A stretch of 64,000 nucleotides of DNA. It comes from Octopus vulgaris. Taxonomy: Eukaryota. The notes under the pieces are model-generated. The model ran no database searches, was not told where the DNA came from, and worked only from the letters and a program-made list of their open reading frames with translations. Shown here one piece after another: positions 25,901-52,993 of this stretch. The stretch lies in contig OX597839.1 of assembly GCA_951406725.2 (NCBI GenBank), positions 7,626,001-7,690,000 of the forward strand. Reading direction: 5' to 3'. Numbering within the stretch: position 1 is the first letter of the stretch; each line of letters begins with the position of its first letter. The translations under genes and the position numbers were made by a program.

Positions 25901-26161
25901 ACTATAGCTTCATCGGAGCCTTGAATATGAAGTGTGATGCCATCCCAGTTTCTTCTTATGCTTCGTTCTGACATATACGTATATTGAGTTCTACACCAGA
26001 TTATTAATCTTACACTGTGTAAGCGAATTATAAATATTTATAGTCAATGCGAGGCTACTTTATCCTCATAGGGGATTATTATATCCGAAATTTCACTGGA
26101 TTAATCACCAACGCCGTTGAGGAATATCAACGATATATATATGGGATTATTTTAAGGATAA

Positions 26162-26738
26162 ATATGATTAAAGAAGAATGGAGAGTTGGTAAATATATAA
26201 AATTAATTTATAAATATATTGCCTCCAAAAATGTCCTACGTACGTTTCATTTCAGTCCAATATATAATTTGCAATTATATATTGAGTGGTTGTATAATGT
26301 CAACATAACGTGAAAATCCCGTAAAGGGAATTACCCCACCGCTATATAGCCCTAGAAAGCATCGACGCTTCCTGTCGGCTTTGACACATTTCCTGTGCCC
26401 TTATATTTGCAAAGGGGAGGCAAGCATCCCCACCAGCTAGGACTAGCAACCTGAAGACATGCATGTTTCTGGGTCTTGCCCGTCATCAGTCCAGGGTAGC
26501 GAGCCCTGCTAGATGGGATGCCTGCCAAGCCTCTGCAAATATATATATTTACAGTGAAATCTTGTCACTCTATCGGTCCACCACCGCTCATGTCCTTTTG
26601 AGACGTTTAGAAATTCAATATTTCTAATTATATATTGGACTGAATTAAAATGTACGTAGGCCATTTTTTTTGGCAGTATGTTAATAAATTAAATTTATAT
26701 CCTTACCAATTATCCATTCTTCTACTTTAATCATATAT
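26162..26738 (-). mobile_element. Hammerhead-bearing non-autonomous element (family H1) with about 120-bp imperfect inverted outer arms
   Basis: 26162-26284 is an imperfect inverted copy of 26617-26738; the interior is homologous to 52272-52949 (caccgcta/gtatagccctag.aagcatcga..ggctttgacacattt). Confidence 0.8.
26450..26495 (-). ncRNA. Type I hammerhead ribozyme
   Basis: Sense CCUGGA-CUGAUGA-cGGG caaga CCCa-GAAA-CAUGCAUG-UC-UUCAGG: canonical core, 6-bp stem I, palindromic stem III (ACAUGCAUGU), GUC site; C-A mismatch at the base of stem II. Confidence 0.8.
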
Positions 26739-26747
26739 ATACATATA

Positions 26748-27167
26748 GGCGCAGGAGTGGCTGTGTGGTAAGTAGCTTGCTAACCAGCCACATGGTTCCG
26801 GGTTCAGTCCCACTGCGTGGCATCTTGGGCAAGTGTCTTCTGCTATAGCCTCGGGCCGACCAATGCCTCGTGAGTGGATTTGGTAGACGGAAACTGAAAG
26901 AAGCCTGTCGTATATATGTATATATATATATGTATGTGTGTTTGTTTGTGTGTCTGTGTTTGTCCCCCTAGCATTGCTTGACAACCAATGCTGGTGTGTT
27001 TACGTCCCCGTCAATTAGCGGTTCGGCAAAAAGAGACCGATAGAATAAGTACTGGGCTTACAAAAAAAAGACTAAGTCCTGGGGTCGAGTTGCTCGACTA
27101 AAGGCGGTGCTCCAGCATGGCCGCAGTCAAATGACTGAAACAAGTAAAAGAGTAAAGAGTAAAGAGT
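26748..27167 (+). mobile_element. SINE-A, full length
   Basis: ggcgcaggagtggctgtgtggtaagtagc .. caagtaaaagagtaaagag. Confidence 0.92.
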
Positions 27168-34276: not shown

Positions 34277-34645
34277 TTTTTCACAATACGCACGCTACTC
34301 AAAAAAGGTCGACAGAAATGTGTCTCAAATGGGCTGGAGTATTTCTATTTTGGATGTATTTGGGGTACTTAATTGTGCTCATGACTTAGTGTTTGCTTCT
34401 TCCATGGGTATGAGTAAGTATCTCATTTATTTCTTTGCCACATTTATCACTGACGAAGGGAGGGTTCTTATGAACTAACCCTGAAATCGGTCCGATATGG
34501 TAATAATGGAATTTTTTAGAAATTTCTGTCCACCTTTTTCGAGTAGCGTGCGTATTGTGAAAAATTATATGCTTATGGACAATATGTCCAATTTCGGCAT
34601 ATTTGGCATTAGGAATTTTTTCGTTTGCCCTTATTTATAAGTTAC
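34277..34645 (+). mobile_element. Hammerhead-bearing short element (family H2) with a 5' inverted duplication
   Basis: 34277-34319 is an inverted copy of 34522-34564 (43 bp, 2 mismatches); the HHR motif lies between the arms; ends in (TA)n. Confidence 0.7.
34445..34497 (+). ncRNA. Type I hammerhead motif, slightly decayed
   Basis: UAUCa-CUGACGA-AGGG agg GUUC uuau GAAC uaa CCCU-GAAA-UCGG-UC-cGAUA; the core is intact and stem III is one change from the palindrome ACCGGU. Confidence 0.65.
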
Positions 34646-34850
34646 ATATATATATATATATATATATAGATAAGAAAGTTTGTTTGGTAAAGCACGTGGG
34701 TGAATATATAAGAAAATAGTAAAGTGTGAAAAAACGACAGAAGGCTTAAATGTTAAAAAATATATATATTTGTGTCAAAATGTCTGGAGAATATTGGAAA
34801 AATTTTTTTTTTTTTCCTTTCCTTAAAATGACATAATTTTAAAATTTTTA

Positions 34851-34890
34851 AAGAAATTACCGGTTTCGCGTGTAGCTTTTCAAATTTCTT
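34851..34890 (-). ncRNA. PLE 3' UTR minimal hammerhead, U3-A8 core variant
   Basis: Reverse complement of 37706-37745. Confidence 0.72.
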
Positions 34891-35050
34891 GTGACGTTAT
34901 GTTTATATTGCATGGAGTTATCGTTGTTTTTATTTCCAGGAGATTTCTAAATAAGGGGAGGTAGTGAGTGATTTCTTCCGGTGTAGGGGAGATAATCGCT
35001 TAAAAATTTTTTTTGTTTTTTTTTTTGTTTTTTTTTTTCCCTTTTCCTTG

Positions 35051-36301
35051 TTAATTTCTCTGTGTCAGTATGTTCGGATGGTTGAGTCTGGGTTTGTACT
35101 TTTCAATGAAGAATGTTTCCTTGTTCAGTCTCATTTGTGTTGATGATCCGAAAGCACATTGGTAAAATGGGAAGATTAAAAATTGTGGCAGTAGTTGTTT
35201 TGCGCATTTCTCAATGTGCTCACTAAAAGGTATCATTCTATATTCTGGGAATGCAATCTGTTGTCGATGCAGTGTGCATCTACGCCTGAGTGATAGTCCC
35301 GTGGAACCCACGTAGTCTTGGTGGCAGCCCGAGCATTTAATAACATAAATTATGTTTTCAGAGGCACAAGTAAAGTTAGATTTGATCTTAAATTTCTGTC
35401 CCTCTTTAAAGAAGAATTCTGATCCTTCCAATAGGTTAGGACATGTTGCACAGTTCGATCTACCACATTTTTTTACTTTTGCATCCGTAATTTTAGAAGA
35501 CAATTTTGCCTTTGTGAGAATCTTTTTAAGAGATTTAGGCTGTTTGTAGCTTTTAATGATTTGGTGTATGTTTAGAATTTCCTTTAATTTTGGGTTTTTA
35601 TGAAGTATTGGTAAATTCTGGGTGATGATGGTGAAGGCTTCTTTGTTTCTGGGGTTGTATGTAGATATGTAAGGTAGTATTTTCGGGGAAGGTGTGTTGT
35701 TGTGTTGAACTTTTCTTAAAGTTTCTATGTTGATTTCTGTTGCACGTCTGATCCCATCCTCTATGAGTTGAGCTGGGTAATGTCTATCAATTAGGGTGTT
35801 TTTGAGTTCTTGCAGTCTAAAGTTCCTGGTATTTTGTTCTGACACTATTGTGCATATCCTTCTTGCAAGGTTGAAGGGGATGTTTGTTTTAGTGTGTCTT
35901 GGGTGGCATGAATTAAAAAGAAGGTATTGTTTGGCGTCTGTGGCTTTGTAAAAAATGTCTGTTTCTATTTTAAGGTTAATTTTTTTAATTAGTATATCCA
36001 AGAACGGGAGCTCCTTTTGGTTGTATTCCATTGTGCACTGTATATTTGGGTTTATGCTGTTCAATAGGTTTTTAAATTTTAGGAGTTTATCTATGTTTTC
36101 ATTCCAGAGAATGAAACAATCGTCTAGGAATCGTTTCCAATTCTCTTTTATGTATTGAGAGAGGGAGTTTCCAAAGATTGATAGAGATTCCTGGTAAATG
36201 ATTATTTCCATGTATCCCATTGTTAAGTTCGCAATGACTGGTGCTGCCCTTGTACCCATAGCAATTCCGGATTTTTGACGGTAAAATGTATTGTCAAACA
36301 T
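35051..36301 (-). CDS. PLE polyprotein C-terminal part: reverse transcriptase + GIY-YIG endonuclease
   Basis: YRQKSGIAMG, WKRFLDDCFILW, LPFLDI, SCHP, Cys linker CGRSNCATC, NIIYVIKCSGCHQDYVGST..R..H; 416 open codons. Confidence 0.92.
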   Translation of the reverse strand: MFDNTFYRQKSGIAMGTRAAPVIANLTMGYMEIIIYQESLSIFGNSLSQYIKENWKRFLDDCFILWNENIDKLLKFKNLLNSINPNIQCTMEYNQKELPFLDILIKKINLKIETDIFYKATDAKQYLLFNSCHPRHTKTNIPFNLARRICTIVSEQNTRNFRLQELKNTLIDRHYPAQLIEDGIRRATEINIETLRKVQHNNTPSPKILPYISTYNPRNKEAFTIITQNLPILHKNPKLKEILNIHQIIKSYKQPKSLKKILTKAKLSSKITDAKVKKCGRSNCATCPNLLEGSEFFFKEGQKFKIKSNFTCASENIIYVIKCSGCHQDYVGSTGLSLRRRCTLHRQQIAFPEYRMIPFSEHIEKCAKQLLPQFLIFPFYQCAFGSSTQMRLNKETFFIEKYKPRLNHPNILTQRN

Positions 36302-36601
36302 GAAGTGGTTATTGTGTAGGATGAATTCAATTGATTTAGTAATGAATTCCTTACTGATCCTTTTTGGTATTTCTTCCGGAAATTGGTACTAACCAGAATT
36401 GTATTGCCTCCAGTCCATAATTATGAGGTATACTGGTATACAAGTTGACTACATCAAATGAAACCAGGATTGTTTCTTCCTTGGTTTTTTTTGGAAGGTG
36501 GTCCCTTAACATATCTAAGTCATCTCTGATATGGGAAACGATTATCGATTGTTTGTTCTCTGGAAGAAAACATAGATTTCAAGAGGATGTCCATAAGTAG
36601 A

Positions 36602-37569
36602 CAAAAGGAGCTCCCGTTCTTGGATATACTAATTAAAAAAATTAACCTTAAAATAGAAACAGACATTTTTTACAAAGCCACAGACGCCAAACAATACCTT
36701 CTTTTTAATTCATGCCACCCAAGACACACTAAAACAAACATCCCCTTCAACCTTGCAAGAAGGATATGCACAATAGTGTCAGAACAAAATACCAGGAACT
36801 TTAGACTGCAAGAACTCAAAAACACCCTAATTGACAGACATTACCCAGCTCAACTCATAGAGGATGGGATCAGACGTGCAACAGAAATCAACATAGAAAC
36901 TTTAAGAAAAGTTCAACACAACAACACACCTTCCCCGAAAATACTACCTTACATATCTACATACAACCCCAGAAACAAAGAAGCCTTCACCATCATCACC
37001 CAGAATTTACCAATACTTCATAAAAACCCAAAATTAAAGGAAATTCTAAACATACACCAAATCATTAAAAGCTACAAACAGCCTAAATCTCTTAAAAGAT
37101 TCTCACAAAGGCAAAATTGTCTTCTAAAATTACGGATGCAAAAGTAAAAAAATGTGGTAGATCGAACTGTGCAACATGTCCTAACCTATTGGAAGGATCA
37201 GAATTCTTCTTTAAAGAGGGACAGAAATTTAAGATCAAATCTAACTTTACTTGTGCCTCTGAAAACATAATTTATGTTATTAAATGCTCGGGCTGCCACC
37301 AAGACTACGTGGGTTCCACGGGACTATCACTCAGGCGTAGATGCACACTGCATCGACAACAGATTGCATTCCCAGAATATAGAATGATACCTTTTAGTGA
37401 GCACATTGAGAAATGCGCAAAACAACTACTGCCACAATTTTTAATCTTCCCATTTTACCAATGTGCTTTCGGATCATCAACACAAATGAGACTGAACAAG
37501 GAAACATTCTTCATTGAAAAGTACAAACCCAGACTCAACCATCCGAACATACTGACACAGAGAAATTAA
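36602..37569 (+). pseudogene. PLE RT thumb + GIY-YIG, one frameshift near 37097
   Basis: ORFs 36587-37147 and 37117-37569 match the left-arm protein; one A is missing in a homopolymer. Confidence 0.88.
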
Positions 37570-37705
37570 CAAGGAAAAGGGAAAAAAAATTTTTAAGCGA
37601 TTATCTCCCCTACACCGGAAGAAATCACTCACTACCTCCCCTTATTTAGAAATCTCCTGGAAATAAAAACAACGATAACTCCATGCAATATAAACATAAC
37701 GTCAC

Positions 37706-37745
37706 AAGAAATTTGAAAAGCTACACGCGAAACCGGTAATTTCTT
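37706..37745 (+). ncRNA. PLE 3' UTR minimal hammerhead, U3-A8 core variant
   Basis: AAGAAAU-UUGAAAA-GC uacac GC-GAAA-CCGG-UA-AUUUCUU: perfect 7-bp stem I, palindromic ACCGGU stem III, GUA site. Confidence 0.72.
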
Positions 37746-37883
37746 TAAAAATTTTAAAATTATGTCATTTTAAGGAAAGGAAAAAAAAAAATTTTTGCAA
37801 TATTCTCCAGACATTTTGACACAAATATATATATTTTTTAACATTTAAGCCTTCTGTCGTTTTTTCACACTTTACTATTTTTT

Positions 37884-37921
<38 letters not shown>

Positions 37922-49948: not shown

Positions 49949-50522
49949 AGTAACCAGCTCCGTCCAATTATAGAAAAAAGACCAAAAACGGAAAGTTGTC
50001 GAGGTGAGTGATTTTGTTTATTGTGAGTTGGGCATAATTTATTACAACCCAATTATTATTTCAGTAAGTTGTGTCCAACTCTGAGACAATTTCGCCTGCT
50101 CTCGGCGGCTGCCGTTTTTGTGTTTATTGAAAAAAAAAAACAGTGGAGGGGCGTATCCGTCTTCGATAAATTGAGTGAATATTTTTTTTCACGTAATTGT
50201 GAGAATTGTATTGTGCTGTAAAGAACTTTTTGTGAAAACTGCTATATAGGGGAGTATTTTGCCTCCGAAGTTTGAACAAGTTTTACCAATTTTACACCAA
50301 TTTTTGTGGAAGTTGTGCGTTCCTGCTTCAATTTAGGCCGGGAGTACCAAATGGCCAGAAGGTTTTTGCTGTGTTATTGACTTTCTTTTTAACTTTATTT
50401 GACTTTCTTTTTAACTTTATTTGACTCTCTCCTTTTTTCACTGTGACTTTCTTCGGATTTCCTTTTCTTCTCGTTTTTTAGTTTTATTCTGAATACATTT
50501 AAAAAAAAACAAAAAAAAAAAC

Positions 50523-51761
50523 ATGGCAACGAAAAATAACAAACTTTTGGAATGGGAGATCATACCGCCTAAAAAGTGGTTAAAAGACCGTGAAGATAGG
50601 ACGGTGGTGTTGAGAACCTACTCCAAGGCACTCGACACCATCGCCCTATTCGAAAAGACGGCAATTGAAAAGGAGTTGGAAGAGTATTTGCCAACAATTA
50701 AATTCATTTCCAGGGGTGTCAAATATGCAACGGTGTGGTTGCTATTTGACACCCCTGAAGAGGCTTGCAAATTTGCTAGCAAACCCCTGGAGGGTAAGGA
50801 AATCTTATTCCTGCCCACGTACAAAAAAAAGATATTGATGAAAGCTTGGATTTGCGGCCTGCCACCCGACATAGAACCCGAGTGGATAGAGGAGACTATC
50901 CGCCGGGGTCTGGGTGGCAGCGAAACTAAGCTCCTTAATGTAAAAGTTCTTCCTGCGGCTGCTTGGGTTGGGTCAAAAGCAATTTTGACCCTGTGGACCC
51001 AATCAGCCAATCTGGTTCTTCCAGATTTTTTAAATGGCCGGGTGCAGGTACCCGGTGATGCTTGAGGGTCGCCCCCCTAAGTGTCATCGGTGCTTGGAGT
51101 CCGGCCACATAAAGAAGAACTGTCCCCGGGAACAAAATAGGATCCCTGAACAGTTAAGTAAAACCCCTCTAGAAGAGGGAATGATAACGGCCGAGAAAGC
51201 AGAGGACTCTTCAAACAGAGGCCGAAAGAGGAAGGTGAGCAACAATGGGTGCTCACCAAAGGATAATAGGGATGAGGAGAGGAAGGCGAATCTTCCGGCC
51301 ACGGAGGAGACGCACCCTCCCTCAGTTGAAAAGGGAAAAAAAGAAAAAGAGGAAAGAAAAACGGGACATTGCCGGCTGTCAGTGACATAGCACCGGAATG
51401 TCCCGGAACTACGTCGGTTGGGGTTGTGCCACCGACAAGAGAAGGAATACCGTTCGCGGGAACTGTGCCGCCAACGAAAGAACTGAACGGATTGGTCCTC
51501 TTCTATAGAGGAGGTGAAATTGAAAAGGTGATGGAAGAGCACCACAAGGGAGGACCTTTAGCCTTCACACAGGACCCCGAATGGCCTCCGCAGGTAGCTG
51601 TGGAGGCCGTGGCGTTCGACGTGACGCTTGGGCTAAAGGAGCTCAATGAAGATTATAACTTGGTCCCGGGCGACGCAAACTCGGAACTTGATTACGTTCT
51701 GAGGGAGGCGTGGTTGATGGTGGAGGGCGCGGGCACAAGCTATTTCGAGGACGATATGTAA
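50523..51761 (+). pseudogene. Gag/ORF1-like protein with CCHC zinc knuckle (about 410 aa, two compensating frameshifts)
   Basis: Three overlapping ORFs (50523-51065, 51034-51390, 51369-51761); EGRPPKCHRCLESGHIKKNC fits CX2CX4HX4C, preceded by RRM-like segments (WICGLPPDI); the shifts lie at T and A homopolymers. Confidence 0.75.
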
Positions 51762-52269: not shown

Positions 52270-52400
52270 CGAGGGTACACCACCGCTGTATAGCCCTAGG
52301 AAGCATCGAACGCCTCCTGATGGCTTTGACACATTTTTCCCTGTGTCCTTATATACATATACGAAGGGGAGACAAACACCCCCCGGCTGCCGAAACTGCA

Positions 52401-52445
52401 TCTAGGGACACGTGTTTCAGGATCGTTGTCCTTCATCGGCCTAGA
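52401..52445 (-). ncRNA. Type I hammerhead ribozyme (U4C core variant)
   Basis: Sense UCUAGG-CCGAUGA-AGGA caacga UCCU-GAAA-CACGUG-UC-CCUAGA; all three stems are perfect. Confidence 0.82.
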
Positions 52446-52732
52446 GTAGCAGACACCGGTCAACCGGTGATATTTGTCTCGACTTCGTAATTGTATATAT
52501 CTATACTCAGTGAAGTCTATTCACTGATTATCAAAATAAGAAATATTGTCACGTTCTTGTTAGATTGACAGTATACAACCATTCTATCGCCCCACCACCG
52601 TACATGTCTCTTCGAGAGATTTAGAAATTCAATATTTCTTATTTTGATAATCAGTGAATAGACTTCACTGAGTATAGATATATACAATTACGAAGTCGAG
52701 ACAAATATCACCGGTTGACCGGTGTCTGCTAC

Positions 52733-52777
52733 TCTAGGCCGATGAAGGACAACGATCTTGAAACACGTGTCCCTAGA
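52733..52777 (+). ncRNA. Type I hammerhead ribozyme (U4C core variant)
   Basis: UCUAGG-CCGAUGA-AGGA caacga UCUU-GAAA-CACGUG-UC-CCUAGA; differs from the other copy by a G-C to G-U change; predicted cut after 52771. Confidence 0.82.
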
Positions 52778-52941
52778 TGCAGTTTCGGCAGCCGGGGGTG
52801 TTTGTCTCCCCTTCGTATATGTATTTAAAGACACAGGGGAAATGTGTCAAAGCCATCAGGAGGCGTTCGATGCTTCCTAGGGCTATACAGCGGTGATGTA
52901 ACCCCTACTGTCACGTTCTTGTTAGATTGACAGTATATAAC

Positions 52942-52993
<52 letters not shown>

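Follow-up and report, generated by a model that had tools for sequence, protein, structure and literature searches.

The window analyzed here is a 64,000-nt stretch of Octopus vulgaris DNA. It carries a type I hammerhead motif on the minus strand at positions 26450–26495, recognized by its helices and core letters. Read on the minus strand from 26495 to 26450, the order is helix I strand, CUGAUGA, C-GGG-CAAGA-CCC-A, GAAA, CAUGCAUG, UC, and the other helix I strand. In helix I, 26490–26495 pairs with 26450–26455. The CUGAUGA box is located at 26483–26489, helix II at 26470–26482 with a C opposite an A at its base, and the GAAA box at 26466–26469. Helix III (26457–26466) is a 10-nt palindrome, which could pair within one unit or between two. 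At the GUC triplet, cleavage is predicted between 26456 and 26455. The core of type I hammerheads, namely CUGANGA, GAAA and UH around three helices with helix I open, was present in this copy. Next to it, GCUAC (26496–26500, minus strand) provides two extra helix I pairs and a UAC bulge. Helix I is prolonged by a covarying rod of inner, middle and outer helices (26402–26543, minus strand), about 45 bp long and tipped by the hammerhead. The 171-nt fold had a z score of -5.9, and 0 of 200 shuffles were as stable. The motif with its cut position and the imperfect helix extending stem I had been proposed in an earlier note made from the letters, and both were confirmed. The sequences it quoted for stems I, II and III, for GCUAC and for loop II (CAAGA or CAACGA) were also correct for both insertions in the window, at 26 and 52 kb.

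The word "canonical" in that note did not fit this hammerhead. Besides the C opposite A at the helix II base, forming the core costs 4.4 kcal/mol relative to the free (unconstrained) fold, which skips the ribozyme core. Rfam returned no hammerhead match for the 26-kb motif at the gathering score or at E values up to 10. A scan of the window found the hammerhead on one polarity only. Because it has a single hammerhead, the 26-kb copy is unable to release a unit RNA alone.

The element spans 26284–26625 and is made up of roughly 0.8 of a unit and an inverted tail arm of 60 nt. The main arm (26284–26569, minus strand) covers approximately unit positions 10–296 of a 355-nt monomer and ends at the short 3′ site. 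The inverted 5′ arm (26566–26625, plus strand) comes from the ~55-nt tail, at unit positions ~291–350, and the two arms overlap by 4 nt at the inversion joint. An 11-bp target-site duplication flanks the element (26273–26283 on the left and 26626–26636 on the right). Beyond it lies the insertion target, an older repeat with a long arm at 26042–26272 (~80–85% identity among copies) and an inverted short arm at 26637–26740. It had 65 candidates in the genome, with about 75–88% identity in most matches, and it makes inverted pairs on its own. The 11-mer that flanks the element twice occurs uninterrupted, and once, in other copies of this repeat. The 120-bp outer arms that had been added to the rod are indeed inverted and 83% identical, but they are not the element's own and were absent from 29 of 29 other family loci. 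Because of this absence, their being a repeat in their own right, and the single 11-mer elsewhere, the outer arms are placed outside the element. They are a separate, older repeat hosting the insertion, and the 26-kb element landed close to the tip of a palindrome that was already there. The older repeat (26042–26272 and 26637–26740; L062–L070) has a fixed end at TA tracts and is frequently found in inverted pairs. Other copies of it contain a CTGATGAG box without a complete core and are perhaps a decayed retrozyme or pseudo-LTR. An abundant SINE-like repeat adjoins the retrozyme at 26748–26900 of the window and also occurs in about 12 other places.

The 52-kb "copies" of the earlier note are in fact the two arms of one inverted subfamily E insertion (52273–52949), with a minus-strand arm at 52273–52538 and a plus-strand arm of ~1.1 units at 52544–52949. 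Both of its hammerheads carry the core variant CCGAUGA. Two open frames lie nearby (50493–51065 and 51330–51761), the first with no Pfam match, and they are possibly a remnant of an ORF1-like retroelement.

The family was searched for in the 2.8-Gb genome, which is rich in microsatellites. First-look searches gave 2,025 and 2,511 family candidates. The motif from GCUAC to GAAAC gave 1,598 exact matches, decayed copies being left out, versus 1 for the reversed control. The repeat unit is 355 nt in subfamily D, which includes the 26-kb copy, and 365 nt in E, the youngest subfamily, which includes the 52-kb insertion; units are arranged head to tail. It is non-coding, contains no ORF, has one hammerhead per unit and has a G+C content of 44–47%. 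Five subfamilies (A–E) accommodated 178 of the 184 distinct segments; the other six were left out before subfamily counts, being three minor clusters whose flanks were foreign or whose match was due to chance. GCUAC, which the motif search had demanded, is conserved in the consensus of each subfamily. In a 35-row tree, A, D and E were each set apart by a strongly supported branch, with E nested in C and B in an intermediate position. Subfamilies A and B had the longest terminal branches and E the shortest; the tree is midpoint-rooted, and the age order of subfamilies depends on these branch lengths. Sampling was biased, with D collected by BLAST score or an exact 26-mer and A–C by an intact motif. 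Two tandem hammerheads, the most observed in the fetched loci, were present in 7 of 250 loci (overlapping loci counted). Circular folds of four monomers gave z scores of -5.5 to -9.2 in all cases, and the fold was branched outside the rod. The 26-kb copy differed from its subfamily consensus at 8 positions, none of them in the core or helices I–III. It is one ordinary decaying insertion of a large dispersed family. No run recorded as RNA was listed as containing the stretch. Contigs from runs guessed to be RNA mapped on subfamilies D and E. Their depth profile tracked that of one very deep run of unspecified kind, they included no piece covering the whole stretch and no listed pile-up of ends, and they count neither for nor against expression.

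Covariation was analyzed in 40 real copies. Because MAFFT placed subfamily D out of register in two regions, helix I and the inner helix, the test was limited to 26 in-register pairs. These were 95.4% paired, versus 87.8% in shuffles (0 of 500 as high) and 33–51% in slid structures; the sequences are related, the structure was derived from the same sequences, and the shuffle counts are not probabilities. Double-changed cells numbered 118 versus 40.8 in shuffles. Double changes occurred in 11 pairs, within the shuffle range (60 of 500 had as many). In the five consensus sequences, 37 pairs were counted with the inner helix excluded: 16 were invariant, 14 compensatory, 3 one-sided, and 4 broken in some subfamily. 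Outside the helix II base, all 17 double changes remained paired. Compensatory changes fell in helix I, the 3-bp helix II and the rod, and the bulges and core were fixed. Helix III remained palindromic with differing letters (ACUAGU, ACAUGU, ACAUGCAUGU, ACACGUGU), and 106 of 152 parsed copies had exact palindromes. Covariation supports the helices in real copies and in consensus sequences, through counts on related sequences rather than R-scape.

The counted helices outside the helix II base contained 17 G-U cells and no A-C cell, and some G-U pairs were invariant across the five subfamilies. This bias points to RNA of the ribozyme strand. As an alternative, the covariation might have arisen in DNA, through hairpin repair or through conversion of one inverted arm by the other; in its favor, the rod is an inverted repeat and the tested structure was derived from the sequences used to test it. 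This explanation is largely refuted by the bias toward G-U on the ribozyme strand, the compensations in helix I and in a helix II of only 3 bp, and the fixed bulges and core, and we give it hardly any credence.

Mutations were then sorted by how many copies carried them. Private mutations were close to expectation in subfamily E (core, 5 versus 3.7; stems, 9 versus 8.2) and in all D copies (core, 5 versus 5.9; stems, 10 versus 9.8). In one D subset, private core changes were fewer than expected (2 versus 6.4, P = 0.047). Variants common to at least three E copies fell in 1 of 41 ribozyme positions versus 28 of 115 elsewhere. Those shared by at least three D copies fell in 8 of 46 ribozyme positions versus 20 of 120, so that in D the ribozyme was not avoided. 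The shared D core change was GUC to GUA, and GUA is a permitted cleavage triplet. Three loci (L075, L087 and L092) represent a D sub-lineage in which the cut triplet became GUA and a helix I G-U pair became A-U. Because private mutations were neutral and shared E variants avoided the ribozyme, constraint acted on the source RNAs, with the inserted copies, including the 26-kb one, decaying neutrally. The earlier claim of selection on RNA structure therefore stands at the family level, given compensatory changes in five subfamilies, and is not supported for the 26-kb copy or for the 577-nt rod. Selection on catalysis is something we only infer.

A host-selected structured RNA would require that selection maintain this very locus, with its whole 577-nt rod. 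The strong fold (z = -11.2), the absence of all eight consensus differences from the core and helices I–III, and the D subset with fewer private core changes are compatible with it. The outer arms, however, are target DNA, and in the larger sets (E and all D) private changes are about as frequent as neutrality predicts. We regard host selection as very unlikely.

The core of the octopus hammerhead deviates from the standard in several respects. A G10.1-C11.1 pair directly after A9 was found in only 3 of the 1,598 matches. At the helix II base, C/A was the state of 30 of 34 copies in subfamily D and 22 of 29 in B; A copies had U/U or A/U, and all 73 E copies had A/U. The C-A mismatch, which the earlier note had treated as something to repair, is thus the usual state of subfamily D and no lesion. 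The G-C pair next above the base was conserved, and CUGANGA was followed by A, C or U and hardly ever by G. The helix II base can equally well be read as an additional base on either side of that conserved G-C pair. In the available text on Penelope hammerheads, the sequence is likewise CUGANGAH-G (PMC4209133), to which the octopus motif adds one more base before GAAA. The U4C variant CCGAUGA accounted for 637 of the 1,598 matches (40%), in subfamilies C and E, and the youngest lineage has fixed it. According to the accessible part of PMC3088659, U4C lowers activity in vitro and leaves enough for a viroid.

In every subfamily, a unit on its own is expected to cut less well because of one or more of three traits: helix III is a palindrome of 2 bp, the helix II base is not G-C, or U4C is present. 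Axolotl retrozymes whose helix III is weak, or whose helix II carries a U-U, nonetheless have good dimer cleavage, as the available sections of PMC7229834 describe. Among four natural dimers, a double-hammerhead fold was favored over two single ones in three and not in the fourth, and all double-hammerhead folds were above the free minimum. It is an even bet whether the weakened features would let multimers cut while circles persist. We infer a ribozyme that may be tuned for cleavage in multimers.

The ends of the insertions were highly regular. All 30 subfamily D loci ended at unit position 294–301 (19 loci) or 353–355 (11 loci). Among 63 E/C insertions, 94 of 105 arms ended at ~313 (39) or 365 (55); these insertions were picked by a 3′ 30-mer reaching 3–4 nt into the tail, which favors tailed or tandem copies. 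The two fixed 3′ ends are spaced by ~52 nt, and the tail is 52–55 nt long. Inverted insertions made up 38 of the 63. Of the 50 two-arm inverted insertions, every one an E locus, 42 showed one end of each kind. A TA repeat was touched by 37 of the 63, and 19 of the remaining 26 carried a duplication of at least 7 nt. The copies are dispersed with target duplications longer than 4 bp, as in non-LTR retrozymes. They also bear the marks of Penelope-type insertion, namely two fixed 3′ ends, a tail at one end, 5′ inversion and an AT/TA target. As set out in the available part of Craig et al. 2021 (10.1101/2021.04.23.441226), the Penelope footprint comprises partial tandems, a 5′-truncated inverted arm, an optional tail, and AT/TA targets. 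In the element studied in PMC11167929, reverse transcription starts at two internal sites in AC-rich RNA, the tail corresponds to what lies between them, and cutting and extension take place on both DNA strands. The earlier note named neither the element class nor its mode of movement. Judged from genomic sequence, the family is a non-LTR retrozyme type with a Penelope-type insertion footprint, and Penelope-type retrotransposon enzymes are likely to copy it into the genome.

The arms also bear on the template. The cut site was crossed by 45 of 105 arms, and 5′ ends within 5 nt of it showed no excess (3 versus 2.5 expected among the 105 arms). Twenty arms were longer than one unit, and copying rarely stopped at the unit junction. 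A single haplotype ran through the units of each insertion: units within an insertion agreed at 265 of 286 polymorphic sites in tandem copies and 561 of 585 in inverted copies, versus 58% between insertions. Because copying passed the cut site and each insertion had one haplotype, the template was a circle or an uncut homogeneous multimer rather than the cut linear monomer.

The best explanation starts with source arrays of the 355–365-nt non-coding repeat, which are likely transcribed. The multimeric RNA is predicted to self-cleave into unit-length RNAs, which would then be circularized. A Penelope-like RT-endonuclease likely copies the circles into AT-rich DNA, and the two fixed ends would be internal RT start sites used from both cut DNA strands, as observed in vitro with another Penelope-like element. 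We assign a probability of roughly 0.6 to such a cleaved, circularized and Penelope-copied retrozyme. Against it, the observed arrays are short, hammerhead mutants left insertion in vitro unchanged (PMC11167929), and only one of nine tested frog elements cleaved (10.64898/2026.07.22.740005).

Alternatively, a Penelope-type enzyme may use a linear, uncut multimeric transcript, derived from a detached pseudo-LTR, with a hammerhead that trims or is weak and with no circle formed. The genomic footprints fit a circle and a homogeneous multimer equally well. Uncut RNA was the main substrate in the study of PMC11167929. The H after CUGANGA is also that of Penelope hammerheads in the available text of PMC4209133, and the youngest lineage fixed U4C (637 of 1,598), which lowers activity according to the part of PMC3088659 at hand. 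Against a linear template, at most two tandem hammerheads were found in the fetched loci, yet 20 of 105 arms are longer than a single unit. The core, palindrome and loop-bulge letters were preserved over five subfamilies, and the related coral, mussel and axolotl retrozymes are circles in the accessible sections of PMC7229834. We consider the linear template doubtful, though it deserves serious attention.

The size, rod, hammerhead and ladder-like succession of variants would also suit a viroid-like circle that replicates from RNA to RNA and is rarely written into the genome. Such a circle has very little probability: the window scan found one polarity only, the fold is branched outside the rod, and thousands of genomic copies and natural dimers are available as DNA sources.

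Candidate enzymes were examined in the same genome. The window contains a very young Penelope element in an inverted pair (34670–37885), with an RT to GIY-YIG frame at 35051–36388 (minus strand). We take it to be Neptune-type from its RT, CxxxxCxxC linker and GIY-YIG-like motifs, identified by eye, and from features of the clade; Pfam gave no name to the Penelope protein. The family of young Neptune-type elements showed the two-end pattern, with 21 of 36 ends carrying a tail and 15 of 36 without one. Its open frames are 811 aa long, and 101 of 150 scored copies were identical to the window protein. The 3′ region of the 34670–37885 element has a minimal hammerhead-like motif with U3/A8 replacing C3/G8. 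Back to back with this element lies a second, unrelated hammerhead repeat (34280–34645; motif 34438–34509, plus strand), which has a 5′ inverted piece and ends in a TA tract. A second, GC-rich Neptune-type family had 958 candidates and copies 99% identical. In it, the 5′ end of one truncated copy (L312) is fused to where a related element has its 3′ end, with no TA at the joint, possibly by a template jump between Penelope RNAs.

The retrozyme unit had no sequence likeness to the 3′ regions of the two young Neptune families. Penelope protein matches occurred in 11 of 250 loci, none of which, by coordinates (five read by eye), has the unit directly behind the ORF end. Because of these two results, a Penelope partner is not established. 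Penelope fragments near L007, L011, L187 and L075 were considered as a parent and rejected, being separate neighbors.

At one locus (L113/L296, G000:C1:50314.7–50317.9 kb), between two TA tracts, an inverted E pair is fused at position 365 to a 5′-truncated copy from the young, GC-rich Neptune-type family. The joint has a 1-nt overlap, no TA and no duplication. Between the two retrozyme arms, 3 of 107 nt are different, and the Neptune copy is ~1% from most of its relatives. Two targeted pattern searches for further retrozyme-Neptune fusions gave 4 matches, none fused, and 1 match, the known case. The simplest reading, for which the chances are balanced, is that the fusion was a single event, in which the RT would have switched from element mRNA to retrozyme RNA at the start site. 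The single event is in doubt because there is no second case, both elements prefer TA tracts, and the retrozyme arms seem somewhat older than the Neptune copy; this last point leans slightly toward two events. A scenario combining a slowed hammerhead that spares circles, a young Neptune enzyme copying the circle from two start sites, and a template switch recorded at L296 is tentative and, on genomic data, rather unlikely to be right in every part. The GC-rich Neptune-type family of L296 is rich in pyrimidines in its 3′ region, shows the same single 3′ end in 19 of 19 retrieved ends, and has a minimal hammerhead-like motif starting with UUGAAGA.

The octopus family resembles the metazoan non-LTR retrozymes as presented in the available text of Cervera and de la Pena 2020 (PMC7229834). 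Both have units of 150–450 bp (350–390 bp in mussel and 330/350 bp in axolotl) with G+C under 50%, each containing a single type I hammerhead and no ORF. Both also show long target duplications and a highly paired fold with an exposed ribozyme. The weak palindromic helix III of axolotl HHR_Amex1 and the U-U at the helix II base of HHR_Amex2 are weakenings like those in octopus. A difference is that octopus copies are mostly dispersed 0.3–2-mers, inverted and with two fixed ends, rather than long arrays. Also unlike the metazoan retrozymes of those sections, the octopus helix II base is G-C in only 3 of 1,598 matches, and U4C occurs in 40% of the motif matches. They are described there as circles, whereas the octopus family is known from genomic DNA.

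With Penelope-like EN+ clades, the octopus family shares the insertion footprint, as far as the available parts of 10.1101/2021.04.23.441226 and Frangieh et al. 2024 (PMC11167929) describe it. With Penelope-like hammerheads, in the available text of PMC4209133, it shares the H after A9 and the palindromic helix III. Unlike the Penelope-like elements of these excerpts, the octopus unit has no RT or endonuclease, and its tail is 52–55 nt instead of 30–40. It also has a full-size, tertiary-stabilized predicted ribozyme on a long rod, and no parent was found. Vertebrate retrozymes from Penelope pseudo-LTRs (Li, Clavereau and Pollet 2026, 10.64898/2026.07.22.740005) are likewise dispersed monomers co-occurring with Neptune. 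Their case rests on co-occurrence and sequence likeness, whereas the octopus evidence is the insertion footprint, and neither tested Neptune family resembles the octopus unit.

In a literature search, mostly of openly readable papers, we found no account of an octopus hammerhead family, a cephalopod Penelope ribozyme or a retrozyme-Penelope fusion. The discussion section of PMC7229834, in its available part, raised as questions which enzyme moves animal retrozymes and how their circles avoid cutting themselves. The octopus family makes both questions testable, with exact predicted RT starts, candidate Neptune enzymes that have open frames, and five natural ribozyme variants whose cores are non-standard.
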